This document shows positions 2,868-56,850 of a DNA stretch of 64,000 nucleotides, in pieces. Each line of letters opens with the position of its first letter. Position 1 is the first letter of the stretch. The notes beneath the pieces were generated by a model that was given only the letters and a program-made list of their open reading frames with translations, was not told where the DNA came from and made no database searches. Source of the stretch: a plasmid; the sequence record NZ_CP082221.1. One strand, given 5' to 3'. Made by a program: the position numbers and the translations under genes.

Positions 2868-3062
2868 GGCGTTCCCTACGGGCCGGGCTAGTTGGCTTCG
2901 CTCGAACTCCAAGCGAAAAAGAGGATCCATCGAGTTTAAAATCTAGTTTCATGCAAAGCCTGAACCTGATTTTAATACTCGATTCAAATCCTCTTTTTTT
3001 ACGCTTGTATTTCGCCCCTTACGGGCAACATCCCTAACGCAGCATGATCGTGCTGTTTATCT

Positions 3063-3424
3063 TTAAAATTGAATCTAGGGGCAATTAGAGCGATTTAGAG
3101 GGCTATTTGTCGCAACCCTGCGGGATTGCTTTGTTATTACCGGATAAGGTCCAATGGGAGAAGTTTCACTTCTTCGGTCGTCTAGTCAAAATCACAGATT
3201 TTGACTGACTCGCTCGAAGTTTGAAACGGTAATCAAGGAGGGGGATGCTCGCAAATTTCATCAGTTCGCAACGTGGACACGTTGCTCTGCAAATGTATTT
3301 TATAATACGAAAAATTACACTAAATATATGTTTTTTCTTAATAAAAAGACATGAAAATGTAGTATAATTAAGGGGTGAAATCGGATAGGCTGGTTTCTAT
3401 ATATGAGCTGAAAAGCTTAAGGTG
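3063..3424 (+). repeat. structured ~360-bp repeat, copy 1 (candidate ssDNA promoter/ssi or structured leader)
   Basis: near-identical to 59834-60193 and partially to 62240-62442; multiple perfect hairpins (gcaaccctgcgggattgc; agtcaaaatc-acag-gattttgact; gcaacgtg-ga-cacgttgc; long-range ttaccg/cggtaa); ends in tagtataat -10-like box and hairpin-SD module. Confidence 0.7.
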
Positions 3425-8976: not shown

Positions 8977-11900
8977 ATGCTAAGTGTTAACAATGTAGTT
9001 GAATCTGGAAAGGCTTTGTCTTACTACCAATTAGATAATTATTATACTAATGAGCAACAATCATTGGATCAAACTGAATGGTATGGTCGTGGTGCTCAAG
9101 TATTAGGTATTAATGGTGAACAAATTGAGGCAAATACTTTTAAAGACTTGCTAGAAGGTAGAGTAGAAGATCAACAGTTGGGGCGAGTTAGGAAAGATGA
9201 AAATGGTCAAAGTTATATTGATCATAGAGCTGGTATAGATTTAACGTTTAGTGCTCCAAAATCTGTTTCGATAATGGCAGAGGTTTTTGAAAATCAAGAT
9301 GTGCTACAAGCACATCTTGATGCTGTTAAAGATACTATTTCCGCTATTGAAGATCATTACACGCAAACTAGAATCAGTGTTGATGGCACAATTCAAAAAT
9401 CAGAGAGTGATAATTTAGTTGTTGCTCTTTTTAATCACAATACTAGTAGAGCATTGGATCCGCAAACTCATACACATGCAGTTGTTATGAACATGACTTT
9501 AAATGATAAAGATTCATGGACGGCATTAAGTAACGAAGTAATTTATGATAATCAGGCAACCATAGGTTCGATATATAATTCTAATCTCGCTCAAAATTTA
9601 AGAGCTATAGGTCTTGATGTAGAGGTAAAAGATAATCAGGGCAATTTTGAAATTGCCGGCTTTACTCCAGAAATGATACAAGAGTTTTCTCAGCGAAGAA
9701 CTCAGATTATTGAAAGTTTAAAAAGTAGAGGAATTGATATTGAAGATGCACCTGCTAGTTTGAGAGAACAAGCAGCTTTAAAAACACGGGAAAGGAAACA
9801 GGCATTTAATGAGGCTGAATTACGTCAAGTTTGGAAGGAACGTGCAAGTGAACTTGGCATTACACAAAGTTTTGTAGATAAGCTAGAAGATAAAATTAAA
9901 ACGAATCAGATGAATGCGGATCCGCAACCTTCAGAAAAAAACCAAAAAGACATATGGAAAACCGGATCCTCAAAAAATGATCCGAATATATCATTTGAAG
10001 GGAAAACGGAAGTTTCTAGCGATAAATCTAATAACGCTGATAAAGAAGCACCAGATAAACGAATTGACAACTCTGAAACGCAAAATCCGAGCGATAGCGC
10101 CATATCAAATGAAAAAGCTAGTCAAGTATCAGGAAAATCCCAAAAAGAGCCAGAAACGCAAAATATGGGCCAAGAAGCGCATATTCAAGATGAAGTTAGA
10201 TTGGGTAAGAAACAAACTGAACCTAAAGCGAGTAACAATTCAAAAGACCAGACTGTACCTAGAGAACGACCTTATCAAAGAAAGAATCGTGAATCTCAAC
10301 AAGTACTCATAAGCCAAAAAACAAAAGAAGCCGTTTACTACGCTATAGGGCATCACACCGAAAGAGAAATGATGATACCTGAAACAAAGATACTAAATAC
10401 GGCTATGAAATTTGACATACAAGAAGTAACTCATGAACAAGTACGAGCTGAGTTAAATAGACTAGAAAAAGAAAAAATCATCGTCCGGGTAGATGGGAAG
10501 TTAACAACTCAGCGTTTGGCACATAGCGAAGTTTGGTCGTTACAACATATACAAAATGAACAAAAAAGCGTGAGTCCAATAGTGGATGAATCTCAAGTTA
10601 AAACAAGACTCGATCAAGAGGAACAGTTGAGAGGGAGGAAGTTTACACCCGGACAAAGAGCAAGTCTTGAAACAATATTTAGTTCTGAAAGTAGATATAT
10701 AGGCGTAGACGGTTTAGCTGGTACGGGTAAAACTACAATGCTGCATACTTTGAATAAAGTAGCCTCAGAAAACGGTTTTATTGTTAAAGGTATGGCCGCC
10801 ACTGGCGTAGCTGCTAAAAACTTAGAATTGGAAACTGGTATACCCTCAAAAACAATGGCCATGTTTCAGATTAAAGAAAATGAGCTTCAGAAAGAAATTG
10901 AAAAGAATGGGGGAGTAAACCGTAAAAATGAAATCTGGATAGTTGATGAATCTTCATTTGTAAGCCAGACAAACTTCAAAGACATTTTGACTTTGGCTAA
11001 GCAAGCTAATAGTCGTGTTGTTTTTTTAGGGGATAAATTGCAGCTTCAGTCAATTAGTGCAGGAAAACCATTTGAACTTGTACAAAATAGAGGTGTGCTA
11101 AAAACTTCACAAATGCATGACATTATCCGTCAAAAAAACCAGGAACTTAAAGACGTGGTTTCTGTTGTCGTTGCAAAAAACAAAGAAGGTAAAATTGATT
11201 TAAGTAACAACGATAAAGCTTTTGATTTACTTGATAAACAGCAAAGGATTCATGAAGTAGTTGTAGCTGCAAAGGGTACACAACCAGCTCTACATGAGCA
11301 GCATGACTTATTTCAGGAAATTCATGAAGTACATCAAAAATTAGTTGGTGATTATATGAGGCTTAATAAGGAATCAAGAGATAATAGCCTTATCATTACT
11401 CCCTTTAACTCAGATAGAGTAATGCTGAACTCACTTGTAAGAAGCGAAATGAAAAAACTAAATGAATTAGATCATAATGATCATAATTTTGAGATCTTAG
11501 TAAATACCAATTTCACTGAAGCGGAGCGTAAACATATTAATAATTATGAGCCTAATATGACGATACGTTTTGGGAAATCATTTACAGATAAAGACACAGG
11601 AATCAAAATTGAAAAAGGTGACTATCTAAAAGTAATGATGAAAGACAAAGAAGGTAAATTGGTATTAATTGATAAGGATAAAAATAAAATTAAATGGAAC
11701 CCTAAAAAAGGAAGTGTAGAAGTATATAAATCAGAACAAAGAAAGATAGCTAAGGGAGATGTAATAAGAATTACCCGGACAAAAGATGATGAACAGATCA
11801 AGAATGGTGAAAGATATAAAATCAAGGATATTCATGAAGATAAAGTAATAGTAGAAGGCCAGGATGGGAAAGAGAAAAGCCTATCAAGAAGTGGGTTTAA

Positions 11901-12252
11901 ACATTTTGATTACGGCTATAGTAGTACTGTTTATTCCTCTCAGGGCTTAACACAGGGTAATGTATTTTTGTTACTAAATAGCCAAAAATTAGCAAATGAT
12001 CTGAAAAGTGATAAGGCTGCCACCAAAGTTTTAGGTAATACATTTGGAACAAGATCATTTTATGTTGCTGTAACGAGGGAAGAGCATAATTTGCAGATTT
12101 ACACTGATAATAAACAAATGACACGAGAAGCAATTACGTTTAAACAAGATAAAACAAGTTATTTGGATACAGTTAAAGAAGTTGGTCAAAAAGTACCAGA
12201 ACATATCATCGAAAATGAAAAAATTGGTGTAACTAATGAGCTAGAAAGATAG
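8977..12252 (+). CDS. traI: MOBF relaxase-helicase (TrwC/TraI family)
   Basis: N-terminal relaxase with HTHAVVMN histidine triad; ~150-aa low-complexity linker; C-terminal helicase with Walker A GLAGTGKTT. Confidence 0.9.
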   Translation: MLSVNNVVESGKALSYYQLDNYYTNEQQSLDQTEWYGRGAQVLGINGEQIEANTFKDLLEGRVEDQQLGRVRKDENGQSYIDHRAGIDLTFSAPKSVSIMAEVFENQDVLQAHLDAVKDTISAIEDHYTQTRISVDGTIQKSESDNLVVALFNHNTSRALDPQTHTHAVVMNMTLNDKDSWTALSNEVIYDNQATIGSIYNSNLAQNLRAIGLDVEVKDNQGNFEIAGFTPEMIQEFSQRRTQIIESLKSRGIDIEDAPASLREQAALKTRERKQAFNEAELRQVWKERASELGITQSFVDKLEDKIKTNQMNADPQPSEKNQKDIWKTGSSKNDPNISFEGKTEVSSDKSNNADKEAPDKRIDNSETQNPSDSAISNEKASQVSGKSQKEPETQNMGQEAHIQDEVRLGKKQTEPKASNNSKDQTVPRERPYQRKNRESQQVLISQKTKEAVYYAIGHHTEREMMIPETKILNTAMKFDIQEVTHEQVRAELNRLEKEKIIVRVDGKLTTQRLAHSEVWSLQHIQNEQKSVSPIVDESQVKTRLDQEEQLRGRKFTPGQRASLETIFSSESRYIGVDGLAGTGKTTMLHTLNKVASENGFIVKGMAATGVAAKNLELETGIPSKTMAMFQIKENELQKEIEKNGGVNRKNEIWIVDESSFVSQTNFKDILTLAKQANSRVVFLGDKLQLQSISAGKPFELVQNRGVLKTSQMHDIIRQKNQELKDVVSVVVAKNKEGKIDLSNNDKAFDLLDKQQRIHEVVVAAKGTQPALHEQHDLFQEIHEVHQKLVGDYMRLNKESRDNSLIITPFNSDRVMLNSLVRSEMKKLNELDHNDHNFEILVNTNFTEAERKHINNYEPNMTIRFGKSFTDKDTGIKIEKGDYLKVMMKDKEGKLVLIDKDKNKIKWNPKKGSVEVYKSEQRKIAKGDVIRITRTKDDEQIKNGERYKIKDIHEDKVIVEGQDGKEKSLSRSGFKHFDYGYSSTVYSSQGLTQGNVFLLLNSQKLANDLKSDKAATKVLGNTFGTRSFYVAVTREEHNLQIYTDNKQMTREAITFKQDKTSYLDTVKEVGQKVPEHIIENEKIGVTNELER
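9913..9928. repeat. palindrome family member inside traI
   Basis: atgcggatccgcaacc; encodes NADPQ in the traI linker. Confidence 0.8.
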
Positions 12253-13995: not shown

Positions 13996-14274
13996 CTATC
14001 CGTATTTTCTTTTTACAACAGAATTGTAAAAATTAATGAGGATATGGATTAAAGAAAAAATTGTAAATAGAATTAAAAATATGATACTTGCTATTTTATT
14101 AATAGAAAGTGTGGTTGTAAAAAAAACTAATGAAGCTTTAATTCCTATTCCACACATTAAACTTAAACCAATTAAAGAAGTATCAAATTCTTCAAAGTCA
14201 TCCTTAAAAAGAAAACTCAGTGATTGCAACAATAAAAAACTTGAAAGATATAGAGTAAGTGTAAAACTATCCAT
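13996..14274 (-). CDS. small membrane protein
   Basis: 92 aa hydrophobic. Confidence 0.35.
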   Translation of the reverse strand: MDSFTLTLYLSSFLLLQSLSFLFKDDFEEFDTSLIGLSLMCGIGIKASLVFFTTTLSINKIASIIFLILFTIFSLIHILINFYNSVVKRKYG

Positions 14275-14288
14275 TGTAATAACCTTCT

Positions 14289-14750
14289 TTATTTACAAGA
14301 GTTTTTAATGGCAAATGATTTAATTACTTCTGATCTTTCGTTGTATTTTTTTGCGAGTGATCCATATTCTGATAGTGTATAACTTCCTTTTACAAATACA
14401 GAATTCAGGATTGGATCATTTACAGTTCTAACTGTTGGTAAAGCAATATCTAAAGCCTGTTGATATGGTTTCATAGCATTATTCAAATGATATGGAAATG
14501 ATAAAAAGCCTATAGTAGTTCCTATAAAAAGAGATAAGGCAATTATATTAATATTTAAGTTTACAAATTTAAAAGTTAGCAATTTTAGTGCTATCAAACT
14601 AATGACTATCGACAATATCATATAACTAGCACAATTCATTGCTACATTAATAGATGTTGGATTCAAAAATGAAGTGTCTGTATTAGGAAGCGTAATAAGA
14701 CAATTGTTAATTAAGTCTAGTGGTTGCAATAATTCCATGTTTAACTCCAT
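14289..14750 (-). CDS. membrane protein, hypothetical
   Basis: 153 aa, TM segments; module revcomp gagctgaaaagcttatggag upstream. Confidence 0.45.
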   Translation of the reverse strand: MELNMELLQPLDLINNCLITLPNTDTSFLNPTSINVAMNCASYMILSIVISLIALKLLTFKFVNLNINIIALSLFIGTTIGFLSFPYHLNNAMKPYQQALDIALPTVRTVNDPILNSVFVKGSYTLSEYGSLAKKYNERSEVIKSFAIKNSCK

Positions 14751-14963
14751 AAGCTTTTCAGCTCTAAAATTTTGGTATTGGTTAATTAATTTGTAATATT
14801 GAAGGCGGAAAATTGGATTGAATTAACATAAATGATAATGCTAACACCGCTGCAAGACATGGTGTCACATGATTATTAAATCTATGGATAAATAATATAT
14901 GCCAGCCCATTAAAATTGAAATTCCTGTTAAATAGAATAATGGACCAATTTATTAACCCTCTC

Positions 14964-15161
14964 TTACTGATTAAATTTAATTGAAAAACCAATGCCATTT
15001 ATACTCAGAAATAGACCGATAATTAAAGTCATATGGCCTACATTTTGAACCCATAAATCATTTTGATACTTTTTAGATTTGTACCAATACAAACCTACCA
15101 AAATAAATAGTACACCTAATGCTGTAATAATTAGCGTAATTAAACTAAATTTAAACCCCAT
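14964..15161 (-). CDS. small membrane protein
   Basis: 65 aa, 2 TM; module variant gagctcaatagcttaagg upstream. Confidence 0.4.
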   Translation of the reverse strand: MGFKFSLITLIITALGVLFILVGLYWYKSKKYQNDLWVQNVGHMTLIIGLFLSINGIGFSIKFNQ

Positions 15162-15303
15162 AGTATATCTCCTTAAGCTATTGAGCTCATTCTTTAAAAA
15201 TCTAGGTTAAGTATCTACAAAATTCAAGAAAAAGTAAATGTAATAATACCGAATTGTATTATTTATTTGATTCAATAACATCTCTTGAACCATTTTTAAT
15301 CTG

Positions 15304-15963
15304 TTACTCCTTTTTATCATTAGTGATATTGTTAGCTTCACCGATACGTTCTCTTGCTTCTAAGATCTTTGATTCCTGTATCGTCTCAAATTCCATATCT
15401 TTGAATCTTTTATAAAAATGTTCTATGAATAAAAATTCATAGTCAAAATAGGATATATACCCTCTTTCTTTCATGATCTTTTCGATTGGTTTTTTTAAAG
15501 GGAGATTATAATTATCTTTCAGATACAATACCTTTTTATACATATCTTCATTGATTTCCTTTTCAATGAGAGCTGAACATCGCTCATAATCTGAAAGTAA
15601 TACTAAGTTAATATACATTGGTCTAGATAATTTAAATTCTTTTTCTTTTGAAGAATAAAAAACTTTTCTTAAAATTATTTCTGTTATTTTTTTATTTAAA
15701 TAGTAATTAATAATGATCGATACAAGTCCGCTAATTGCTATCATAAATGCAGTATCAACATTATTAGATTTTTCATGACTAACTAAACCAACTAACCATA
15801 GGGAACCACCGATTAAAGCAATTATGGATAAAAATATGGCTATAATTGAGAAAGTATCCCATTTTTTCATGAGTCCTAGTTTGGATTTCTTAAGCAGATC
15901 GTCTTTTTGATAAACATCGAATATATCGATTACATCATGCATGTAGATATTTTCATGGATCAT
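15304..15963 (-). CDS. membrane-anchored hypothetical protein
   Basis: 219 aa; 2 TM then soluble domain; module gagctgaaaagcttatggag upstream. Confidence 0.45.
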   Translation of the reverse strand: MIHENIYMHDVIDIFDVYQKDDLLKKSKLGLMKKWDTFSIIAIFLSIIALIGGSLWLVGLVSHEKSNNVDTAFMIAISGLVSIIINYYLNKKITEIILRKVFYSSKEKEFKLSRPMYINLVLLSDYERCSALIEKEINEDMYKKVLYLKDNYNLPLKKPIEKIMKERGYISYFDYEFLFIEHFYKRFKDMEFETIQESKILEARERIGEANNITNDKKE

Positions 15964-16219
15964 TTTTTGTACTCCATAAGCTTTTCAGCTCATTCATAAA
16001 GTTTTATGATGTTATATTGAATCAATATAATTTAATATGTATATTTGGTCAATATAACTCAGCAAGGTTGGCTAGGCCATTTTAGATGCTTAAAATTCTA
16101 TTTTAACCATATATAATTCTGAGGTCTTTTTAACTATACCCAAAAAAGCCATATTGATAGTAAATATGGCAATTATAGTTACCCATGATATTTGTTTATA
16201 AATGTAGGAGTCTGATCTG

Positions 16220-16858
16220 TTGAATAACGTAGCTCGTATTTACATGCGTGTCAGTACAGAGAAACAAGATCTTGAGCGACAAGAGAAGGTGATAAATGAT
16301 GCGCGAAATGCTGGTTATTATATTGCAGCAGTCTATAGGGAAAAAGCTTCAGGTATTACACCTGATCGTCCAGAACTTAATAGGATGATACATGACCTTC
16401 AAGCCGGTGAAGTAGTTATTGCAGAGCGAATTGACCGTATTAGTAGATTACCATTACCTGAAGCCGAGAAGTTAATTGTTGCAATTAAAGAAAAAGGTGC
16501 AAAACTTTCAATACCCGGTGTAATTGATTTATCTGAATTTTCAAAAGATGCTAGTGGAATTTCTAAAATTGTATTAGATCAAGTACAAGACATGTTGCTA
16601 AAAATTGCATTGCAAATGGCACATGAAGATTATTTGTTAATTAAAAAAAGAAGGGAAGAGGGAATTGAACTTCGAAAAAATAAAGGTCTTTACAATGGTA
16701 GAAAAGCTGACAAAAAACTTCACGATAAAATTGTAGAGTTAAGAAAGCAGAATATTAGTATTTCAAAAACGGCATTAATAGCAAATTGTAGTGTTTCTTT
16801 AGTTAAGCTAGTTTGGAAGAGATATAGCGAATCAAATTCATCTCAAGCTTTAAAGTAA
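16220..16858 (+). CDS. serine recombinase (resolvase/invertase family)
   Basis: IYMRVSTEKQDLERQ catalytic Ser motif, C-terminal HTH; AT-rich palindromes upstream (16010-16200) as candidate res site. Confidence 0.8.
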   Translation: MNNVARIYMRVSTEKQDLERQEKVINDARNAGYYIAAVYREKASGITPDRPELNRMIHDLQAGEVVIAERIDRISRLPLPEAEKLIVAIKEKGAKLSIPGVIDLSEFSKDASGISKIVLDQVQDMLLKIALQMAHEDYLLIKKRREEGIELRKNKGLYNGRKADKKLHDKIVELRKQNISISKTALIANCSVSLVKLVWKRYSESNSSQALK

Positions 16859-16860
16859 TT

Positions 16861-16882
16861 GTTGTTGCGGATCCGCAACAAC
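16861..16882. repeat. palindrome family member (22-bp perfect)
   Basis: gttgttgcggatccgcaacaac between convergent resolvase and membrane ORF. Confidence 0.85.
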
Positions 16883-16899
16883 AATTGTTTGAGACTTTT

Positions 16900-17331
16900 T
16901 CATTCTTGTTTAGAAATAAAAGCTTTTATAAATTTTGAATTGCTAATGAACAACATAAATGCAAATAAAGTTATTAGGCTAATATTAAAATTATATAAGG
17001 GAATATTGTTCGTAATCACTTCAGGAGTTCGTGTAGCAACCATCCAAAAACTACCAGTTAAAAGAATTAAGAGATTTTGGAAAGGGGTGTCTGCAATTTT
17101 TTTTAATGAATTGAAAAAAAATTGCCCAACAAAAGTGAAGGTACACAGTAGGAGGGAGAGGTAAAAATTAACGGCAAGGGCTGTAAAAATAGATCCGATC
17201 TCTACGGCATTCATGTTTTTAAATAGCAATTTACCAAATACCATCCCAACAAAGTAACTCAGAATAAATATTCCTAAACTTAATAAAGCTACCAGATAGT
17301 GTCTAAATATATGTTTGACAATACTTTGCAT
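16900..17331 (-). CDS. membrane protein, hypothetical
   Basis: 143 aa, 4 hydrophobic helices; preferred over overlapping + ORF 16859-17164. Confidence 0.4.
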   Translation of the reverse strand: MQSIVKHIFRHYLVALLSLGIFILSYFVGMVFGKLLFKNMNAVEIGSIFTALAVNFYLSLLLCTFTFVGQFFFNSLKKIADTPFQNLLILLTGSFWMVATRTPEVITNNIPLYNFNISLITLFAFMLFISNSKFIKAFISKQE

Positions 17332-17356
17332 CTTGCACTCCTTCTATTCTTATTGT

Positions 17357-17692
17357 TTAGAACAACACTTCATTGGGTGTCTTAACTTTTTCATTTTCAA
17401 ATTTATTGCCACAGTCTTTACATTCCAGATCAATTTTTTTGAAAATCTTTGATGCTTCTGATTCCTTTAATTGAAAACATCCATTTTCAAAATGAATTAC
17501 ATCTGCTGTTTGGTATCTAACGCTGCATATGAGATTCCGACTTTTACATTTAGGACATTTTACTTCGGAATTTAATTCTAATGGTTTTAACGGAGTATTG
17601 AGAGCTGCTTCAACAGTTGATAACTTAACATTCATAATTTTTGACTCATAACTATTAATGAGATTTAAAGAATTTATGCCTTTTTTTGCCAT
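17357..17692 (-). CDS. zinc-ribbon protein, hypothetical
   Basis: CPKC...(37 aa)...CKDC pattern. Confidence 0.4.
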   Translation of the reverse strand: MAKKGINSLNLINSYESKIMNVKLSTVEAALNTPLKPLELNSEVKCPKCKSRNLICSVRYQTADVIHFENGCFQLKESEASKIFKKIDLECKDCGNKFENEKVKTPNEVLF

Positions 17693-18565: not shown

Positions 18566-18802
18566 ATGAATAGATTTTTTTTGCTTCTACTATGTTGCGG
18601 ATCCGCAACCTTAGCAGTAGCAAAAGAACAAAAAAATGAAACAAAACAGCAGAGTATGAATGAACCTAACCCTATCACCCGATATGTGAATGTTCTTCAA
18701 AAGGGTGAAGGCAGAGAATCAAAATTTGTTCTATGTGATCCAGAAAATAAAAGTTGCGTTCAACAAGAGCGCAGTGAAAAGCATTTGGCAGTAGCCAAAT
18801 AA
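18566..18802 (+). CDS. small secreted protein, hypothetical
   Basis: signal peptide MNRFFLLLLCCGSATLAVA; GCGGATCCGC palindrome encodes CGSAT. Confidence 0.45.
   Translation: MNRFFLLLLCCGSATLAVAKEQKNETKQQSMNEPNPITRYVNVLQKGEGRESKFVLCDPENKSCVQQERSEKHLAVAK
18594..18609. repeat. palindrome family member
   Basis: gttgcggatccgcaac inside the signal peptide of ORF 18566. Confidence 0.8.
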
Positions 18803-23160: not shown

Positions 23161-23805
23161 ATGAAAAGAAAAGGTATTTTACTTTGCTTGGCAATCAATC
23201 TAAGTGGATGTGCAGCATTTAACGGAGGGTTCGACGGTTTAAATGGTCAAAGCTCATTTTCATGCAAAGCGCCAGATGGAATTTTGTGTGACTCAATGTC
23301 AGGTGTAATGGCGAATTTGAATGCAAACAATTTGCCGTCACAGCAGGTTAAACATGGCAATAGTAAAGAAGTAATTGCAAATACATATATGCAGCGTACA
23401 CGTGCGACTAAAGATAATGCAATGCCAGTAGCTCCATACGCAGATGAACCATTACTACGCCAACCGAAAACTCTCAGAATTTGGGTAGCTCCGTGGGAAT
23501 CTTCGGATAGAACTTTATTCGATCAACAATATTTCTATCTAGTAATCGACAATTGGAAGTGGATGATTGAACACAATTCTCGACGTCTACAAGATGCATA
23601 CGCACCAATTGGAGCCCCAATTTCAAACTATTCAAGTCCAGCCATTACAGTTGCGGATCCGCAATCTACTAAAACAGGTTCAGATGGTCCTATACCAGTA
23701 AATGCTTCAGTTAATAGCCAGCCAAATAGTAAAGAAATTTTGAATGGAATAAATACTGAAATAAAAGACTTGAATGTCGATATCTCTAAGTTTACTAGAC
23801 AGTGA
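23161..23805 (+). CDS. traV: TraV-like lipoprotein
   Basis: lipobox NLSGCA, synteny before traC. Confidence 0.6.
   Translation: MKRKGILLCLAINLSGCAAFNGGFDGLNGQSSFSCKAPDGILCDSMSGVMANLNANNLPSQQVKHGNSKEVIANTYMQRTRATKDNAMPVAPYADEPLLRQPKTLRIWVAPWESSDRTLFDQQYFYLVIDNWKWMIEHNSRRLQDAYAPIGAPISNYSSPAITVADPQSTKTGSDGPIPVNASVNSQPNSKEILNGINTEIKDLNVDISKFTRQ
23651..23664. repeat. palindrome family member inside traV
   Basis: ttgcggatccgcaa. Confidence 0.8.
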
Positions 23806-23814
23806 GATTAACTT

Positions 23815-26541
23815 ATGACTGGAAATAACAAACTAATCAATTTTAGAGCCATGCTCGCAAACTGGTTTAAGGTCCACGTATTAGGTGATGATCCGACAGG
23901 TAAAAAATTCTCAACTGTAGATTTAACGAATAAGATTCTTGAAAGCTACGGCATGTATCAGATATTTAAATACAACATGTTTAATGTGAAAAGAAGTCTT
24001 TATTATAATGATGGCCCTTCCGTAAGCTTTGCTCTAGAAATCATACCGCAGACAGGATCAAATGAGGACTTCGTTTCTCGCATAGTATCTATTATTTCAA
24101 GTTTCCCTGCGGAAACAGGTATTCAGATATTAAACTTCGGTAATACAATTTTTGAAGATGATCTTCAAGAGTACTTGGATTTACGTGTGGCGGAATATCA
24201 GAATGGTAAAGTGTCTGATTTCGCAATAGAATTTGCAAAGAATCGAATCAAACATATCCAGTCTCGTAAAGGACGGCCACAGTTCGGAAGAGACTCATAT
24301 TACGTTATTAAAAAACCAAAAATTATTCTATCAGTTACACGTTCGGGTAGTTATAAAGACCCACAACTAATTAAGCAAATGGAAGAGTTGTTGCATCAGA
24401 CAAGTGCTCAACTACAACAAGCTAAATTACCTAATATTGTTTTAACACCAATGTTACTGCTTAAAATAATTAAGCCAATGCTTGACCCTGAGAGTTTATT
24501 TAGAACCGTTCCACCAGAACATGAATTCCAAGTTTCTCGCTCATACTACAGTGAAGATTATAATCGTCTAGAATCAATAAAAAGTCAGTTAACACCACGT
24601 GGTCATTCAGCAACAGTTGGTGTGTCTGAAATAGTATTTGGTCAACCTATAATTGATAAAACTAAGGGAACTAATAGATCAGTAAGAGTCTATGATTCTG
24701 AATGGATTGAAGAAGATGACGATGAAGATCTAGAAGAAGACAATCGAATTGCATTTCGTGGTTTTGGAGTTATGAGGTATCCAAAATTCAAACATCTTTA
24801 TGAAATGGGAAATGTAATTGGCGATTTTTTTGAAAATTCCCTTCAGTATCCATGCCCTTACATAATTTCGATGGGTATTCATATCTTAGATAAAACATCT
24901 TCTGAAACCAAAGCAAGAATAAAGCAAGCTCGTTCAACACAGAATGCTGAAAGTAAAATGGCAAAATGGCAGCCTGAGTATGCTGAAATTGCTAGAGATT
25001 GGAATGCGATCACATATCACCTACATAAAGGTGGAGGGATGTGCGAGCTCTATCATACAATCGGGATATTCGCTCCAAGATCACAACTAGATAGTTATTC
25101 TGCAAACGTTGACAATTTATGGAAGTCAAACGGCTTTAGCGTAATGCCGTTATCTTGCTTACAACTGCCACTTCTTTATTCATCAATGCCTATGATTTTG
25201 ACAAAAAAGGCAAGAGATGATTTGAAGAAATTAAAGCTGATTACGACTAAAACAACTATTAATGCCGTAGATATGATGCCAATTTTGTCAGAATGGCAAG
25301 GTTTCGGTAAACCGGTAATTATGGTATTTGGCCGCAGAGGAACACCTTGTTTTTTTGATTTATTTTCAAATAAACAGGGGAACTATAATTTTTATATTTG
25401 TGGTACGTCAGGCGCTGGTAAATCTGTTTTCTCTCTTGAAATTTTGGCAGCTTACAAAAGCTTGGGCTTCAAAATATATATTATTGACGTAGGACGCTCA
25501 TTTAAAAACTTCGTAGCGCTCGGTAAAGGACAAGCAATTGATTTCGCAAAGCGCGAAAAGATTTGTATGAATCCTTTCACATGGCTAGAGGTAATTGAAG
25601 ATGAGGAACTTTCGGAAAAAGAAGGAACCTTAAATACATTTGCCCAAGAGATGAAAATGCTCTTGCCTATGTATGCAAAAATGGCTTCACCATCCAAACC
25701 ATTAGACGATTACGATAAAGCTCTCCTTTCAAGAGCTATTAGAGAGACATGGTTAAAATTCCGCAATAACAATGGCGTAGACCAAATCTCTGACTTCTTG
25801 AAAGAAATTAGAGATCAAAACGGAAATATTGATGCACGAGGTTGGGCTCTTGGTACTCAGTTAGAAAATTTCAAAACAAACGGGATGTATGGAAGTTACT
25901 TTAATGGTAAAGCCAACATCGATATGAATAACGAGATGATATATCTCGAACTGGAAGAACTAAAAGACTCACCTGAATTAAAAACGGTTGTGCTTTTCGG
26001 TGTTATGAACCGAATCATGCGAGATATGTATTTATCGCGATCTCAAGGGAAAATCGTGTTTGTAGATGAAGCATGGCAACTACTTGATGATACAGAAGAA
26101 ACAGCAGCTTTTATTGAAGAAGGTTATCGTAGAGCACGTAAATACTTTGGTTCATTTGGCATGGGTACTCAAGGTATTGATGACGCATTTGCGAATGATG
26201 CTGCTAGAGCTGCATATAATTCTTCAGACTGGAAATTCTTCTTACGCCAAGATGAACAAAGCTTTGAAAAGTTACTTCAAGAGAAAAAAGCGAACTTTTC
26301 TGAAGCTGTCATTAAACAAATTAAGTCAATTGAAAGTATCCACGGTTGGTATTCAGAAATTATGGTTACTTCACCAAACGGTCAGCACATCGTAAGACAT
26401 GTTGCGGATCCGTTTTCTTTAGCTATGGCATCAACAAACAAAGACGACTACAACTTCATTGAAGAATGCACGAATAAAGGCATGAGTATGACAGAAGCAA
26501 CATACGCTTTAATGCGTAAAAAAGAGGCTGAAGAAGTATGA
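23815..26541 (+). CDS. traC: TraC (VirB4-family ATPase)
   Basis: 908 aa, Walker A GTSGAGKS, Walker B VFVDEAW. Confidence 0.9.
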   Translation: MTGNNKLINFRAMLANWFKVHVLGDDPTGKKFSTVDLTNKILESYGMYQIFKYNMFNVKRSLYYNDGPSVSFALEIIPQTGSNEDFVSRIVSIISSFPAETGIQILNFGNTIFEDDLQEYLDLRVAEYQNGKVSDFAIEFAKNRIKHIQSRKGRPQFGRDSYYVIKKPKIILSVTRSGSYKDPQLIKQMEELLHQTSAQLQQAKLPNIVLTPMLLLKIIKPMLDPESLFRTVPPEHEFQVSRSYYSEDYNRLESIKSQLTPRGHSATVGVSEIVFGQPIIDKTKGTNRSVRVYDSEWIEEDDDEDLEEDNRIAFRGFGVMRYPKFKHLYEMGNVIGDFFENSLQYPCPYIISMGIHILDKTSSETKARIKQARSTQNAESKMAKWQPEYAEIARDWNAITYHLHKGGGMCELYHTIGIFAPRSQLDSYSANVDNLWKSNGFSVMPLSCLQLPLLYSSMPMILTKKARDDLKKLKLITTKTTINAVDMMPILSEWQGFGKPVIMVFGRRGTPCFFDLFSNKQGNYNFYICGTSGAGKSVFSLEILAAYKSLGFKIYIIDVGRSFKNFVALGKGQAIDFAKREKICMNPFTWLEVIEDEELSEKEGTLNTFAQEMKMLLPMYAKMASPSKPLDDYDKALLSRAIRETWLKFRNNNGVDQISDFLKEIRDQNGNIDARGWALGTQLENFKTNGMYGSYFNGKANIDMNNEMIYLELEELKDSPELKTVVLFGVMNRIMRDMYLSRSQGKIVFVDEAWQLLDDTEETAAFIEEGYRRARKYFGSFGMGTQGIDDAFANDAARAAYNSSDWKFFLRQDEQSFEKLLQEKKANFSEAVIKQIKSIESIHGWYSEIMVTSPNGQHIVRHVADPFSLAMASTNKDDYNFIEECTNKGMSMTEATYALMRKKEAEEV

Positions 26542-32761: not shown

Positions 32762-33091
32762 ATGAAAGCAAAATTAATAGTAATTTCCTTATCTTTGATT
32801 TGTTCTGGCCCTATGTTCGCTGGCTCAAACTCAATGCAAGATGTTTTTTTGAAGATTAATAGTGAAAGAGAAACAGCTCATTCACTTCAGAAAAATAGAT
32901 TAATCAAAGTTGAATCTGGCCGTTTTTGTAATGAACATAAAGAATTAACATCTAGTAAAACTAAGATTGCGGATCCGCAACATTTACATTCTAGTTCATT
33001 AAACGAAAGGAGCAGAAAACTTAAAAAACCAGAATTAAGTGGTACTAAAACCTCTGATGAGAATTGCGATAAACCAATTCAAGTATCTTAA
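32762..33091 (+). CDS. small secreted protein, hypothetical
   Basis: signal peptide; palindrome encodes ADPQ; module gagccgaagggcttatggtg upstream. Confidence 0.4.
   Translation: MKAKLIVISLSLICSGPMFAGSNSMQDVFLKINSERETAHSLQKNRLIKVESGRFCNEHKELTSSKTKIADPQHLHSSSLNERSRKLKKPELSGTKTSDENCDKPIQVS
32967..32982. repeat. palindrome family member
   Basis: attgcggatccgcaac inside ORF 32762-33091. Confidence 0.8.
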
Positions 33092-38193: not shown

Positions 38194-39250
38194 AAGAAAT
38201 TCTACATTTAGCAGTTCGTCTTATTTCATCTGACCATTCAAACAATTTCTCTTCAGATAAAGGAATTTTGCTATTCATAGCAGCCTTGATAAAACACATT
38301 GTTCCATGCTCAGGATCATCGGAACTTCTTTCAGCTCTATAGTTATATAGTGAATTTACTAAGGAATTATAATTATTGTGATCAGCTTTTATTTTCCAGT
38401 ATCCGATAGCAAAAATATCAGAGACGGCTTCACGCCAGAGTTGTGTTTGTTCAGATCTCTCATTAAGCAAATATGATTGCAGATCAGTAACTTTATTAGC
38501 TTGGTCGGGAGCGATGGACAGAGTGGACAATGGGTTCAAAGAGTTTTTGTTAGGTAAATCTCTTGACCTATCAAGACAATGAGCAAATTCATGCATCATG
38601 ATTCCTTGAACCCACAAGTCCTTATCGACTAAAGAAGGTGCAGTATTTAAGACATTTTGGGGTGATAGATTTAAAATGCAATAACCCGATGCTGCTTGCA
38701 TAGAAGCCGGAGAAGCATTAGGGATATTAAGTGTTGTTAATGCCCAACTATCATTTATGTCGCCAAGCTCAACCACAGTTTTATAATTTTTAAAAGCGTA
38801 ATCTTTTAAGATTTTAAACCCGGTTGCAGAACTTAGAAATTCTTGCCTTTGATCATCAAATTGCTTTTGCGAATAGAGTTTTAATGAATTACCTACTATA
38901 ACGGCTATCAATGCAATCAACAGCGTAAAACTTGCAGAAAGAGAACCTGAAATTATGAATTGTTTTAATTTACTAGTAACCGGATGAGGACCCTTTTTAA
39001 TTTGACTATTTAATAAAAAAAATAAGGGAGTCATCGTCATCAAAGAAAGTATAGTTAAACCGATTACCGGGTAATGCAACGGAATTATGAAGCCCAACAG
39101 AGGCCATATCATGATAGAAATCACAAATAGAATGAAAAGGACGGGGATAGTCAAATCATTCAAGTTAATTTTGTGATTAGACATTTTTATATCCTGGTAA
39201 TTAGTTTCAAGCGTTGCGGATCCGCAAATAATTATTATAACTAACGACAA
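38192..39250 (-). CDS. membrane-anchored HExxH metallopeptidase-like protein (paralog A)
   Basis: N-terminal TM helices; IMMHEFAHCLD zinc-binding motif; paralog of 41467-42492. Confidence 0.5.
   Translation of the reverse strand: MSLVIIIICGSATLETNYQDIKMSNHKINLNDLTIPVLFILFVISIMIWPLLGFIIPLHYPVIGLTILSLMTMTPLFFLLNSQIKKGPHPVTSKLKQFIISGSLSASFTLLIALIAVIVGNSLKLYSQKQFDDQRQEFLSSATGFKILKDYAFKNYKTVVELGDINDSWALTTLNIPNASPASMQAASGYCILNLSPQNVLNTAPSLVDKDLWVQGIMMHEFAHCLDRSRDLPNKNSLNPLSTLSIAPDQANKVTDLQSYLLNERSEQTQLWREAVSDIFAIGYWKIKADHNNYNSLVNSLYNYRAERSSDDPEHGTMCFIKAAMNSKIPLSEEKLFEWSDEIRRTAKCRIS
39213..39228. repeat. palindrome family member
   Basis: gttgcggatccgcaaa in the 5' end of the minus-strand HExxH gene. 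Confidence 0.8.
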
Positions 39251-40656: not shown

Positions 40657-40941
40657 TTATTCTGGACTCGTAAACAGGAAATCAATAGAAATTTTTGGAG
40701 CTTCCTCAATATAAACAGGAATAGTATTTAAACCAAGTGCTAGCGCTGCCCTAAATCGGTTTTCCCCAAGATTAACAATGAATTCTCCTGTTTTATCGGG
40801 ATTCATTCGCACGCTGATAGGGAGTAAAAAGCCATCTTTCTTTATGCTCAATACAAGAGCTTCAATATTTTCGTATACATCATCTTTTTTACTTGATGAG
40901 ATCAATTTCAGTGGCATTTGGATAATTTCTTTGGTTTTCAT
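40657..40941 (-). CDS. ParB N-terminal-domain-like mini protein
   Basis: 94 aa; GENRFRAA motif as in ParB/Srx fold GERRxRA box. Confidence 0.45.
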   Translation of the reverse strand: MKTKEIIQMPLKLISSSKKDDVYENIEALVLSIKKDGFLLPISVRMNPDKTGEFIVNLGENRFRAALALGLNTIPVYIEEAPKISIDFLFTSPE

Positions 40942-46189: not shown

Positions 46190-46429
46190 ATGGAAAATCT
46201 TTATTTTTTTAACGAGAGAAATAAATATCTTAAAGATATCAAATATTTAATATTTTTACTTCTACAAAATTCTATTGAAGATGCCTCTATTGAGCATCAA
46301 AAATTGATATCTATGTCAGTAAGGATATTAAATAACGGTGTCCTATATAAGATGGACTTTTCTAGTCTAATTTCTTTTAAAAATGAACTTATAAATCTAA
46401 ATAAGGAACTCAATAATGGTAACAAATAA
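46190..46429 (+). CDS. hypothetical small protein (antitoxin-position ORF)
   Basis: 79 aa, overlaps start of next ORF by 14 nt. Confidence 0.35.
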   Translation: MENLYFFNERNKYLKDIKYLIFLLLQNSIEDASIEHQKLISMSVRILNNGVLYKMDFSSLISFKNELINLNKELNNGNK

Positions 46430-47498
46430 TTTTGAAAATTCTCTAAATTCTAGTTTGAATTCGGAAGAAAGCATTAATCAACAATTTACTCAATTTGTAG
46501 ATAAGTATTTTAGTTTTTCTAAAGCTTTAGCTGTTAGTCAAGAAACTCCAACAGCTATATTAACTGTGGGTACTCATGATTCAGGTAAAGACGTAATCGT
46601 TGCACAAGCACAAGATGAATTAAATAAAAAAGGTGGTTCAATTTTAATTGACCAATCAATTTTTAAAGTTGCGGATCCGCAACAAGATAAAGACCATTCA
46701 ATTCATCAATTGATTTCTACTATTAGTAATGAAAAATATAATTTGCTTTTAAATCATGAATTTAAAAATGAAAATGTTTTAAATGATATTACTGAATCGC
46801 TTAAGAGTAAAAATTATACGATTGAAATCAGAGCAGTATCTTCATTCCCCCCTAATGAAAACTCTTTAGATAAAAATACACATCCTGAAACTTTAAGAGC
46901 AATAGAAGAATTAGAAAATTCAAAAGTTGTGGATAGTTTTAAAGTTTATGATCGTGTTGGTAAAGAAATTTACTCAAACATGCGTAATGATGAAGGGGTA
47001 TGGAACCAAAAAAAAGCTGGTTTAAATATCTATAATCAAGAAACGAATAAAACTTTATCTAAAACGGAGGCTGATTATAATTTGCTGACGCAACAACAAT
47101 TAAAAGAAATTGAAAATGCTCATCTAACAATTAATCCACGTGAAAACCAAAATAAAAATATAAACGGGAAATCAGAAAAGAACTTAGAAATAAATTTAGA
47201 CCCACCAAAGATTATTAAAGATCCTGGTTCATTTAGAGATGTAGTACATGGTATCGTGACGGATGAGTCTGAAAGGGATTTTACACTCAAAATCAATAAC
47301 TTGGTTGGAATAAAATACAGTAAAGATCAATTAAAGGATCAACTCGAAAAAGACAATAACTTTTATCGTGGACGAGAGTTATTTATTAATCATGCTGGGG
47401 ATATACCGCAATTAATGAATGAAAAGGAAATACAAGATTTTCATATTACTCAAGAACAAAGCTTACAACATGATGTTGGCGTAGAACTAGACAGATAA
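46416..47498 (+). CDS. hypothetical protein with zeta-toxin-like N-terminal pattern (degenerate P-loop)
   Basis: PTAILTVGTHDSGKDVIV...GGSILIDQSIFK resembles the zeta/PezT layout, but the Walker A is GxxxxGKD rather than GK[ST]. Confidence 0.35.
   Translation: MVTNNFENSLNSSLNSEESINQQFTQFVDKYFSFSKALAVSQETPTAILTVGTHDSGKDVIVAQAQDELNKKGGSILIDQSIFKVADPQQDKDHSIHQLISTISNEKYNLLLNHEFKNENVLNDITESLKSKNYTIEIRAVSSFPPNENSLDKNTHPETLRAIEELENSKVVDSFKVYDRVGKEIYSNMRNDEGVWNQKKAGLNIYNQETNKTLSKTEADYNLLTQQQLKEIENAHLTINPRENQNKNINGKSEKNLEINLDPPKIIKDPGSFRDVVHGIVTDESERDFTLKINNLVGIKYSKDQLKDQLEKDNNFYRGRELFINHAGDIPQLMNEKEIQDFHITQEQSLQHDVGVELDR
46668..46683. repeat. palindrome family member
   Basis: gttgcggatccgcaac inside ORF 46416-47498. 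Confidence 0.8.
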
Positions 47499-49695: not shown

Positions 49696-49702
49696 AAGTA
49701 GC

Positions 49703-49722
49703 TGTTGCGGATCCGCAACAGT
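49703..49722. repeat. palindrome family member (20-bp perfect)
   Basis: ctgttgcggatccgcaacag, 8 nt after the stop of 49315-49695, followed by a T-run. Confidence 0.85.
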
Positions 49723-52121: not shown

Positions 52122-52141
52122 TGTTGCGGATCCGCAACAAG
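52122..52141. repeat. palindrome family member
   Basis: atgttgcggatccgcaacaa, after the nuc stop. Confidence 0.85.
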
Positions 52142-52168
52142 TAATTAATGTTTAATAAAGAGGTGAAT

Positions 52169-52495
52169 ATGTCGCAAATTAGTGAATTATCAATTGAAGA
52201 GTTAAAAGATCTTCAGCTTGAAGCAGCCAAATTAATTGAAATCAAAAAAGAACAAGCCATTGAGGATGCTTATTTGAAAATAATTTCAATTGCAGAAAGC
52301 GTAGGATATTCAGTAGAGGATCTTTTGAAAGTAGGCGCAGCGAACTCTAAAAAGAAAGCTCGTAAATCTGTAAAACCGCGCTATCGTAGTAAAGCAAACG
52401 AACAAGATACTTGGACTGGACGCGGTAAACAACCACGTTGGTTAGTAGCCGAAATTGAAAAAGGTGCGAAACTTGAAGATTTACGTATCAACTAA
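52169..52495 (+). CDS. hns: H-NS family nucleoid protein
   Basis: C-terminal TWTGRGKQPRW matches the H-NS DNA-binding motif; SD aaagaggtg. Confidence 0.8.
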   Translation: MSQISELSIEELKDLQLEAAKLIEIKKEQAIEDAYLKIISIAESVGYSVEDLLKVGAANSKKKARKSVKPRYRSKANEQDTWTGRGKQPRWLVAEIEKGAKLEDLRIN

Positions 52496-52508
52496 AAAGG
52501 ATCAAATT

Positions 52509-52697
52509 ATGAAAAATGTAATGATTGTAGATGTCGGTTGTACATTTTGGACACTTGAAAAAATCTTCCAAAATGCTCATCAAAATAATGGTTTTGTGGT
52601 TTTACCAGCTAAGGATATTAAACCATTAAGTACAGTTAGAAAATTTGGCCAAAGTGGTTATCTGGCAGAACAAAATATGTCTGACATTAAATCCTAA
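52509..52697 (+). CDS. hypothetical small protein
   Basis: 62 aa, SD aaagga. Confidence 0.35.
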   Translation: MKNVMIVDVGCTFWTLEKIFQNAHQNNGFVVLPAKDIKPLSTVRKFGQSGYLAEQNMSDIKS

Positions 52698-52764
52698 AAA
52701 CTAAGGAGGAATTAAATAAAAGTCTTTTTGTCTAATTCCTCTAATTGTAAAAAGAGAAATTTGA

Positions 52765-53061
52765 ATGAATATTAAAAATCAAAATAAACACTCACTCAAA
52801 GAACAAATTACACCAGAAATAAAATTGTTCGGTCGCTATTCTATTAGTCCGATCAATCTAATACTACAGATTGTTTGGCTAATCGCATGGGTGTGGAAGG
52901 TAATTCAAGATTTACAAACTTTACACTCTTATGAAAACCCTCTATTAGTGTATTCCATAGGTATGATTTTCTGGATTTTCGTTCTATATCTTGGCATCTA
53001 CGTTATGACTGTTGTTTCAAATAAGCTTAATAAATTAATTTATATGAGGCAAATATCATGA
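52765..53061 (+). CDS. small membrane protein
   Basis: 98 aa, 2 TM. Confidence 0.4.
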   Translation: MNIKNQNKHSLKEQITPEIKLFGRYSISPINLILQIVWLIAWVWKVIQDLQTLHSYENPLLVYSIGMIFWIFVLYLGIYVMTVVSNKLNKLIYMRQIS

Positions 53062-53195
53062 TTGATATTACAAGTAAAATTCTTGATTTAAAATTATTTG
53101 AAGCAGAAGTGATCGACATTGATGAAACTAATCATTGGGAAAATAGTGATCAAATTACTCTGCGACAAAGTGAAGGTGCCTTGATTGTTTTAAGA
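53058..53195 (+). pseudogene. 5' part of small ORF disrupted by Tn2006
   Basis: reading frame continues in frame at 58001-58204 across the 9-bp TSD (..GALIVLR / VLRINYESEKK..). Confidence 0.7.
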
Positions 53196-53213
53196 CTCTG
53201 TACACGACAAATT

Positions 53214-53660
53214 TCACAGAACCCTTATCCTATCAGGATTCTGCCTTCTTAAAATTGCCAAAATTTCCTTAAACTCTTCTTTTTTCCCAAAACCAATTAA
53301 ACGCTGAATCGCCATTTGAACATAGTCTAAACCATAGCGAAATAAACTCATTGAGAGTCGTCCATGCTTCTTTATTTTTATCGCTTTTTTTTGATCATGT
53401 TGCCATTCACCCGTTAAGTAACACCAACAGAAGCTTATAGCTAACACCGCAATCAATTTTTTCACTCGTCTAGGGTCTGTCAAGCGCGTATTTCCAAGAT
53501 TAAACCCGCGTCCTTTGAGACAACTGAATAAGGTTTCAATTTCCCAGCGTAATGCATAATCCTGAATAGCATTGGCATTAAACTGAGGAGAAACGACGAG
53601 TAAAAGCTCTCCATTTTCTAACTGTAGTGCACTTATATATAGTTTCACCCGACCAACCAA
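53214..53660 (-). CDS. ISAba1 transposase OrfB portion
   Basis: differs from copy 2 by one residue (GFNLGNT vs GFNLENT). Confidence 0.8.
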   Translation of the reverse strand: MVGRVKLYISALQLENGELLLVVSPQFNANAIQDYALRWEIETLFSCLKGRGFNLGNTRLTDPRRVKKLIAVLAISFCWCYLTGEWQHDQKKAIKIKKHGRLSMSLFRYGLDYVQMAIQRLIGFGKKEEFKEILAILRRQNPDRIRVL

Positions 53661-53734
53661 AATCCGTCGTTTACGACATTCAATTTGACCAACTTTAAGA
53701 TGGCGAAATAAATCACTAATTTTATGATTCTTTC

Positions 53735-54304: not shown

Positions 54305-54349
54305 AGTATTCGTCGTTAGAAAACAATTATTATGACATTATTTCAATGA

Positions 54350-55231
<882 letters not shown>

Positions 55232-55335
55232 GAGCTTGACAGAAACTCTAATTTTATAAAAAGCCCATTTGAGATAAATGGGCCTTTTATAATCTGACTA
55301 ATAATGAAACCTGTTAATTTTTCTAGTTTAAAATT

Positions 55336-56450: not shown

Positions 56451-56457
56451 TTTTATC

Positions 56458-56850
56458 TCAATTTAACATTGTTTCGTAGTAGTGGAATAATCGCTCTAGA
56501 CGCTCTTCATCTGTCTTAAAATCACTTGATTTATATAGTTTTTCCACTAACGAATCATTCTCTTTATGAGCTTGTTTTAAGTCAAAAGGCATTTTTTCAG
56601 GATCATAAAGTTGAGCCAAACTTAAATGTGAATAGGATTCACGTACAGCTAGTATTTTAAAAGCAGATTCATTTAACTTAAATATCGATGCTTTCATGAG
56701 CTTTGGCACAGGAAAAGTGTTATAGCAAATTGCTGAAGTGTAACGAATACGTTCCTCTAACTTTCCTGCAATAGTTTTAACCCAAACCATGTGCATTTTC
56801 GATTGAAGCAATGCAAATACCTCTGTACACGACAAAAATAGATAACTCAT
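56458..56850 (-). pseudogene. yeeA-like methyltransferase fragment (Tn2006)
   Basis: 130-aa C-terminal fragment abutting the ISAba1 IR. Confidence 0.5.

Follow-up and report, generated by a model that had tools for sequence, protein, structure and literature searches.

The window analysed here is a 64,000-nt stretch of plasmid DNA (sequence record NZ_CP082221.1), along which a GC-rich palindrome, GTTGCGGATCCGCAAC in its 16-bp form, is repeated both between and inside genes. More than 130 RepAci6-type (MOBF/MPF_F) conjugative plasmids of Acinetobacter baumannii match the window at approximately 100% identity, and more than 200 related plasmids were found in PLSDB. The plasmid pTG22182_1 (NZ_CP039994.1; 71,233 bp) was used as an annotated stand-in for the complete plasmid, designated below as plasmid A. 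Eleven copies of TGCGGATCCGCA were found in the window; nine of them are exact copies of TTGCGGATCCGCAA, and those at 2638 and 9914 deviate from it in the outermost base only. These sites and a partial copy are located as follows:

Site 1, 2639–2650: ggTGCGGATCCGCAac, intergenic, 72 bp after a 111-aa open reading frame (ORF); one arm departs at position 7
Site 2, 9915–9926: aaTGCGGATCCGCAac, in the MobF relaxase gene (8977–12252), read as NADPQP
Site 3, 16857–16886: the copy flagged initially, a perfect 30-bp palindrome AATTGTTGTTGCGGATCCGCAACAACAATT, 5 bp past the stop codon of a resolvase-type recombinase gene, between convergent genes
Site 4, 18594–18609: GTTGCGGATCCGCAAC, 31 bp into a 78-aa ORF that follows the lytic transglycosylase gene, at the head of the tra operon
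Site 5, 23651–23664: TTGCGGATCCGCAA, in traV (23161–23805), read as VADPQS, in a variable linker
Site 6, 32967–32980: TTGCGGATCCGCAA, in a 109-aa ORF between traF and traH, read as IADPQH
Site 7, 39214–39227: TTGCGGATCCGCAA, intergenic, with divergent genes on either side, one of 330 aa (− strand) and one for a Y-family DNA polymerase (+ strand, start at 39350)
Site 8, 46668–46683: GTTGCGGATCCGCAAC, in a zeta-toxin-family gene (46416–47498), read as VADPQQ
Site 9, 49702–49721: CTGTTGCGGATCCGCAACAG, 8 bp past a stop codon and followed by a T-run; terminator-like on both strands
Site 10, 52122–52139: TGTTGCGGATCCGCAACA, flanked by the genes for the thermonuclease and the plasmid H-NS, with the H-NS start 30 bp downstream
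Site 11, 63941–63968: a perfect 28-bp palindrome TAGGTTGTTGCGGATCCGCAACAACCTA, with the N6-DNA-methylase gene on one side and parA on the other
Partial copy, 26402–26413: TTGCGGATCCGT, the left half plus the centre of the site, inside traC

The initial annotation of the window had counted at least 12 full copies. All eleven coordinates listed there were found to hold GCGGATCCGC, so the list stands and the number has to be reduced to 11. The repetition itself is clearly non-random: in dinucleotide-preserving shuffles (n = 100), the mean number of exact copies of TTGCGGATCCGCAA was 0.00 against 9 observed, and the mean number of matches with at most two mismatches was 0.02 against 11 observed. 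No degenerate copies were detected in the window, the next-best 14-mer matches having three mismatches. A complete relative of approximately 100% identity carries 13 copies of the motif, two of which are located outside the window. A census of all perfect palindromes on the complete plasmid revealed that this motif is the only one repeated beyond a handful of times. Half-sites had also been proposed, of which those at 26402 (TTGCGGATCCG) and 9456 (GGATCCGCAA) are the only long partial copies, the former possibly being a decayed site. The others belong to a class that occurs at about chance frequency, with seven seven-base half-sites outside the full copies against approximately four expected from a base-composition estimate, which is not significant.

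The copies in the window span 12–30 bp, those inside genes being limited to 12–16 bp. Long perfect arms are present at 16857–16886 (30 bp), 63941–63968 (28 bp), 49702–49721 (20 bp) and 52122–52139 (18 bp); an earlier estimate of 20–26 bp recognised the long arms and understated their extent. Seven of the 13 sites of the complete plasmid are intergenic, although only 12.9% of the DNA is intergenic (binomial P = 5 × 10^-4), and six are intragenic. The placement of the copies at 16867, 49707, 52126 and 63950 just past stop codons was confirmed, as was the reading of the copies inside genes as ADPQ or CGSAT. For four of the five intragenic window sites the reading frame is the same and gives (N/V/I)ADPQ, within low-complexity, indel-rich linkers of otherwise unrelated proteins, which suggests that any hydrophilic loop able to tolerate the DNA site can accommodate it. 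Site 4 is read as CCGSAT in the lipoprotein-like signal peptide of the first small ORF of the tra operon and is embedded in an imperfect dyad of about 46 nt.

Conservation and plasmid specificity of the palindrome

The motif was then compared with related plasmids. The plasmid pBJ83 (NZ_CP018422.1) is assigned to another rep cluster and has an identity to the window plasmid of approximately 76% in the parAB DNA and 61% in ParB; the identical 12-mer occurs on it 18 times. The two plasmids have at least eight positions in common, namely those in the zeta-toxin gene, at the post-stop site with the T-run (site 9, where pBJ83 keeps both elements), upstream of the H-NS gene, upstream of parA, about 940 nt into mobF, at the head of the tra operon, in traV and upstream of the Y-family polymerase gene. 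The distance into mobF is the same in both plasmids (site 2), and the pBJ83 copy corresponding to site 10 likewise precedes its H-NS gene. In alignments with pBJ83 the motif forms an island of 100% conservation, whereas its flanks are 65–70% identical and contain indels; site 5, for instance, is kept within flanks of approximately 67% identity that bear indels. A third relative is a contig of a metagenome-assembled genome (MAG) that was mis-binned as Clostridiaceae; it is 65–74% identical and contains five copies at syntenic positions. Sites 4, 7 and 8 have counterparts in both pBJ83 and this contig. Overall, the backbone identity of the relatives is 65–76%, with the motif unchanged.

Thirty-six sites from three lineages were pooled, giving 72 half-sites. 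Positions 1–6 of the half-site are invariant, positions 7 and 8 are 88–92% conserved, position 9 is weakly T, and no conservation was found beyond it. It follows from this profile that the unit is the 16-bp palindrome GTTGCGGATCCGCAAC with an invariant 12-bp core. On the evidence of these alignments, the motif is under purifying selection as a DNA sequence. Contigs that encode ParB family members of 61–66% identity were also found to have the motif, in front of parA (with 15-bp arms), directly at the parB stop codon, or at both places. A more distant ParB (P0008, 44% identical) was uninformative, as it is encoded on a 1.6-kb contig without flanks.

The chromosome of the host was sampled as ten 20.6-kb stretches from three A. 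baumannii chromosomes, reached via ISAba1. No copies of the 10-mer core were found in these 205.7 kb, where approximately 37 would be expected at the density of the plasmid. A scan of species-representative genomes with the 16-mer gave, among the matches listed, single chance matches in GC-rich genomes and one related contig, and the scan of viral contigs gave 17 single chance matches. The 22-mer form GTTGTTGCGGATCCGCAACAAC was present in only two contigs of a metagenome collection, both 97–99% identical to the window plasmid. The metagenome and viral scans thus revealed no new motif-bearing lineages. The array is genuine, conserved and plasmid-specific.

The parAB operon and palindromes of other KorB-domain systems

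The genes parA and parB begin approximately 100 bp past the 3' end of the window (record positions 14261–16294). ParA was classified as a Walker-type protein (AAA_31/CbiA). ParB (WP_000096599.1; 418 aa) contains the Pfam domains ParB_N and KorB (PF08535, E = 4.8 × 10^-10, above its cutoff). Its best sequence match in the PDB is KorB of RK2 (8qa8, E = 10^-13), and the best fold matches of its AlphaFold model are KorB (8qa8/8qa9), followed by ParB/Noc CTPases. The mean predicted local distance difference test (pLDDT) score of the model is 58.5, rising to about 80 in the N-terminal and helix-turn-helix (HTH) domains, for which the model is adequate. The ParB family is tiny, with eight clusters at E < 10^-10 among 5.8 billion proteins. 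When ParB is compared with that of pBJ83, the DNA-binding region is conserved best (approximately 78% identity, against 61% overall) and the linker worst (approximately 20%); the high conservation of the DNA-binding region fits an invariant site. A second gene of ParB fold was found in the window (40657–40941, − strand), encoding 94 aa with the ParB N-terminal domain only and without an HTH.

The palindrome is closely associated with this operon. In each of four diverged lineages (plasmid A, pBJ83, L136 and L138), parA is preceded at about 140 bp (135–145 bp) by a long-armed copy, and a copy abuts the parB stop codon in pBJ83, L135 and L136. In the window the former corresponds to site 11, which lies approximately 135 bp upstream of the parA start (outside the window) and approximately 52 bp upstream of a promoter-like site, TTGCAA-18-TATAAT. 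Site 11 is a candidate for the primary parS/operator of parAB. In addition, parB is always followed by a conserved ORF of 409–411 aa (record positions 16430–17659; also in L135, L136 and L138), which gives the order parA-parB-orf410; no Pfam or NCBIfam match was found for orf410. This arrangement recalls the three-gene parAB-053 operon of IncC plasmids, the third genes being unrelated in size.

The same census of perfect palindromes was applied to three control plasmids, with the following repeated palindromes:

R751 (IncP-1), encoding KorB itself: TTTAGCSGCTAAA, 10 copies, which is the KorB operator
IncC plasmid, ParB 31% identical: TTTCACATGTGAAA, 10 copies, which is the core of the published parS
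Acinetobacter plasmid pYH16056-2, ParB 34% identical: TTTCGTTAACGAAA, 6 copies, one abutting parB; no copies of GTTGCGGATCCGCAAC

Thus, in four systems with a KorB-domain ParB, a single repeated palindrome appears to sit beside parAB, and it changes with the protein; we consider this the strongest in silico support for ParB as the probable binder. The plasmid pYH16056-2 (NZ_CP094547.1) is IncP-like, with the gene order TrfB-related gene, ParA, ParB. Its 14-bp palindrome TTTCGTTAACGAAA is located at 2969, 6166, 11844, 20483, 41112 and 48383 and looks like another undescribed set of KorB-type sites.

Proposed function of the array and alternative explanations

These characteristics allow us to assume that the GTTGCGGATCCGCAAC array probably represents parS/O_B-like binding and loading sites of the plasmid's own KorB-family ParB. 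ParB dimers would recognise the palindrome through the KorB-type HTH domain and, on the model of RK2 KorB and other ParB CTPases, would close into clamps that depend on cytidine triphosphate (CTP) and slide onto the neighbouring DNA. The copy upstream of parA would act as the centromere and as an autoregulatory site. The 12 other copies, spread over the 71-kb backbone, would place every gene within approximately 4.7 kb of a loading site. Plasmid-wide occupancy by ParB would serve the assembly of the partition complex and, probably, KorB-like damping of backbone promoters, namely those of tra, H-NS, the Y-family polymerase gene and parAB. Transcription termination may be a second role of those few intergenic copies that have long arms and T-runs. 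The initial annotation had already suggested an array bound by a ParB/KorB-type protein whose gene lies elsewhere on the replicon. This suggestion is supported by the KorB-domain ParB just past the 3' end of the window, by the long-armed copy upstream of parA in the four lineages, by the different palindrome of pYH16056-2, where ParB also differs, and by the lack of copies in the sampled 205.7 kb of A. baumannii chromosome, where a host-wide element should have appeared. Three sequence features of a type Ia ParABS system were found as well, namely a short palindrome, ParA and an HTH-containing ParB on the same replicon and a site adjoining parAB.

Several observations weigh against this assignment. 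The CTP-binding box of ParB reads GHYRYLAH instead of GERRxRA, or GARRYRG in KorB; the glycine and the arginine in the fourth position are kept and the two other arginines are absent. The motif ENLFR is present, and both motifs are invariant across the eight-member family. The behaviour of ParB as a clamp is therefore uncertain. A Pfam search with the C-terminal 180 aa of ParB gave no match, KorB_C (PF06613) not being detected, and the low-confidence model predicts an all-helical C-terminal domain that does not resemble KorB_C. For none of the sites was overlap with a convincing core promoter seen, and the parA-proximal site lies upstream of the −35 element; promoter scans gave fewer sigma-70-like sites than shuffles in this AT-rich DNA and were uninformative for classing sites as operators. 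Some intergenic arms reach 13–15 bp with symmetry kept by compensatory changes, which recognition of a 16-bp site by a dimer does not require. The plasmids bearing the motif share one backbone, so that any other conserved DNA-binding protein of the backbone is equally correlated with it. In the searchable (non-subscription) literature, no description of the RepAci6-type sites and no binding data, chromatin immunoprecipitation (ChIP) data or genetic data on them were found, and searches with the literal sequence returned only BamHI-tailed PCR primers. Finally, the analogy with KorB alone leaves the even spacing of the sites unexplained.

This spacing is, in our view, the most interesting unexplained feature of the array. 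At an average density of about one site per 5.5 kb, the largest gap in the complete plasmid A is 9.3 kb, compared with a mean of 17.4 kb in simulations (P = 0.003), and the coefficient of variation (CV) of the spacing is 0.41 against 0.90 in simulations (P < 0.001). In pBJ83 the maximum gap is 7.3 kb (P = 0.003) and the CV is 0.46 (P of about 0.003 or less). The KorB sites of R751, examined as a check of the analogy, are spaced unevenly (CV 1.09), and the regular spacing is therefore a real difference from the archetype. Compared with pTG22182_1, the window contains an additional 4.9 kb or so, in which blaOXA-23 is located between two inverted ISAba1-type IS4 copies. This Tn2006-like insertion (approximately 53214–57982; blaOXA-23 at 54401–55231, NCBIfam score of 649 bits with a cutoff of 600) accounts for the longest gap between sites in the window, from 52126 to 63950.

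It is conceivable, though we regard it as rather unlikely, that the near-regular tiling is itself a selected feature and that a plasmid-wide "chromatin" of ParB-CTP clamps silences the backbone, with or against the plasmid H-NS, and lowers the cost of carriage. This idea is based on the reproduction of the spacing in a relative with 61% ParB identity. If it were true, there would be a difference from RK2, in which the sites are grouped at control regions. RepAci6 plasmids and pBJ83-type plasmids, having different replicases and identical sites, would then be expected to show partition incompatibility, and a single 16-mer would be enough for a small element to hijack the system. The even spacing also offers a natural test of the travel distance needed by ParB/KorB clamps.

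An alternative to ParB as the binding protein is a different plasmid DNA-binding protein, such as a backbone regulator, the ParB_N-only protein or the 409-aa protein; the palindrome would then be its operator, in a global regulon that does not involve ParB. In favour of this, annotation is missing for many backbone genes, no family was matched by the ORF after parB, the correlation of the motif is with the backbone as a whole and not with ParB alone, and several sites directly precede genes (those for H-NS and the Y-family polymerase and a 60-aa ORF). Nevertheless, we find this explanation unlikely, as a perfect 16-bp palindrome adjoining parAB in every lineage is the signature of parS, the sole repeated palindrome of each of the three control plasmids either is a ParB/KorB site or adjoins parB, and no other candidate binder was identified.

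It could also be proposed that the copies act mainly as nucleic-acid hairpins, either as intrinsic terminators and RNA-stabilising stem-loops or as hairpins in the conjugatively transferred single strand. The sites at 16867 and 49707 are indeed terminator-like with T-runs, the former (site 3) on the + strand, and five of the 11 sites are found in stable extended hairpins with z scores of RNA folding below −3.4. These include site 1, which lies within a longer imperfect hairpin (z = −3.45), and site 9 (z = −7.9). The arms of the parA-proximal copy, moreover, keep their symmetry in four lineages via compensatory changes at positions 12 and 14. Selection for a hairpin, however, would preserve pairing and not one exact sequence of 12–16 bp at 36 sites in three lineages. 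The other six window sites fold weakly (−5 to −9 kcal/mol, z above −2.3), five of the 11 window sites are located in coding regions, where termination would be harmful, and the site at 52126 is terminator-like on the non-coding strand only. A stem-loop with a downstream T-tract is lacking at these five intragenic copies and at the remaining intergenic ones. As for the long arms, we infer that they could arise neutrally through template-switch "perfection" of quasi-palindromes around a selected core. As a general function, hairpin formation is quite improbable; a terminator side role is plausible at a few post-stop sites, and the terminator role suggested initially would apply to two or three copies at most.

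A target of DNA modification or restriction seems very improbable. The motif contains GATC and the BamHI site GGATCC, and in all lineages the gene directly preceding the parA-proximal site encodes an N6-adenine methylase. Targets of methylases or restriction enzymes are 4–8 bp long, though, and would not keep a 16-bp palindrome invariant, and a further 13 GGATCC sites in the window have no flanking arms. The latter number is to be compared with approximately 5.4 expected. In the 205.7 kb of A. baumannii chromosome, GGATCC is rare, with six occurrences against approximately 26 estimated from base composition. BamHI-type sites thus appear to be depleted in the host sample and not on the plasmid.

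The remaining proposal, a mobile palindrome of the repetitive extragenic palindromic (REP) or miniature inverted-repeat transposable element (MITE) type or a host-wide Acinetobacter sequence that is by chance frequent on the plasmid, draws on the superficial resemblance of dispersed GC-rich palindromes in AT-rich DNA to REP elements and is rejected on the sequences sampled, since no copies were found in the 205.7 kb of chromosome, the flanks are unrelated with conservation ending at 16–18 bp, the intragenic copies are in frame, and the orthologous positions in plasmids diverged to 65–70% identity mean that the copies are old and not recently mobile. Three other candidates were considered separately: a DNA-uptake sequence was ruled out by the absence of the motif from the sampled chromosome, a XerC/D pdif site was rejected for its different 11-6-11 architecture, and the nick region of an origin of transfer (oriT) because it would occupy one locus only.

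The window also contains a second repeat system that is unrelated to the palindrome. A 300-nt direct repeat is located at 3060–3359, 59829–60128 and 62212–62511, with more copies elsewhere on the plasmid. Each repeat is followed by a repeated leader, which consists of a TATAAT-like box, a hairpin GAAATCGGATAGGCTGATTTC and TTTGAGCTGAAAAGCTTAAGGTGA and ends just before the ATG of many small genes. The elements are located as follows:

Leaders of about 80 nt: 884, 1392, 3346, 3694, 60115, 61322, 62519, 63102
Hairpins of the repeat/leader system: 4365, 4795

This system may be a promoter/5' untranslated region cassette of the leading region, perhaps Frpo/ssi-like. In pBJ83, three of the palindrome sites are found inside a repeated unit just upstream of such leader elements.

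Among the main conjugative carriers of blaOXA-23 and aphA6 in carbapenem-resistant A. baumannii are the RepAci6-type plasmids, for whose maintenance and regulatory circuits there is almost no annotation. A 16-bp site with a probable binder would provide a testable explanation of their stability and of the incompatibility of replicon types, with ParB as a candidate global regulator of the transfer genes. The motif can be used as a marker of the RepAci6-type backbone in fragmented assemblies. The site is also a possible target for plasmid curing through titration of the centromere; SGI1 is known to titrate the centromere of IncC plasmids.

Comparison with known partition systems

Chromosomal parS has the sequence TGTTNCACGTGAAACA, and its sites cluster near the origin, some of them inside genes. 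Secondary replicons such as Vibrio chromosome II and those of Burkholderia have multi-site arrays in which each replicon has its own parS. The RepAci6-type site is similar to chromosomal parS in being a 16-bp perfect palindrome with TGTT...AACA outer bases and in the location of some sites in genes. It differs in its central bases, in tiling the replicon instead of clustering at the origin and in the assignment of its ParB to the KorB-HTH subgroup.

IncA/IncC plasmids (R55/pVCR94 type) contain approximately 14 scattered palindromic sites (14 on R55), located mostly in the intergenic backbone, and binding of ParB was demonstrated there by electrophoretic mobility shift assay (EMSA) (Nucleic Acids Res 2024, PMC10954446). 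The IncC ParB also has the ParB_N and KorB domains and is 31% identical to the RepAci6-type protein in an alignment of the N-terminal and HTH parts that covers 42% of the length. Both systems have a parA-parB operon with a site just upstream of parA, and the backbones have in common the N6 methylase gene beside parAB, thermonuclease, PAPS reductase and H-NS genes and the MPF_F transfer system. The IncC site, however, is a 22-bp inverted repeat with the core TTTCACATGTGAAA and AAAC/GTTT flanks, as opposed to GTTGCGGATCCGCAAC, and it overlaps the −10 box of PparA, whereas the RepAci6-type site is located approximately 52 bp upstream of the predicted −35 element. The third gene of the IncC operon encodes 90 aa with an HTH, compared with 409 aa and no family in the RepAci6-type plasmid. 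The hosts are Enterobacterales in one case and Acinetobacter in the other, and the RepAci6-type system is known from sequence alone. The genes shared by the two backbones (the PAPS-reductase-family, thermonuclease, parAB-adjacent N6 methylase and H-NS genes, with a cytosine methyltransferase in pBJ83) suggest distant common ancestry.

In the IncP-1 plasmids RK2 and R751, O_B serves both as the centromere and as a site of long-range repression via CTP-dependent KorB sliding clamps. KorB is the best PDB match of the RepAci6-type ParB by sequence and by fold, and one short palindrome is present in 10–12 dispersed copies, including intragenic and promoter-distal ones, compared with 13 in the RepAci6-type plasmid and 18 in pBJ83. 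The IncP-1 operator is the 13-bp TTTAGCSGCTAAA, which is not among the repeated palindromes of the RepAci6-type plasmid. The C-terminal dimerisation domain of KorB (PF06613) was not detected in the RepAci6-type ParB, whose C-terminus is predicted to be helical, and the arginine-rich CTP box of KorB is altered there to GHYRYLAH. No KorA/TrfB-like gene is annotated beside the RepAci6-type parA, where the N6 methylase gene is found, although no dedicated test for KorA/TrbA was made. The sites of R751 cluster (CV 1.09), whereas those of the RepAci6-type plasmid and pBJ83 are evenly spread (CV 0.41–0.46). Thus, judging by the sequence comparisons, the RepAci6-type array resembles both the ParB-parS array of IncC plasmids and the KorB-O_B array of IncP-1 plasmids and is a member of neither.

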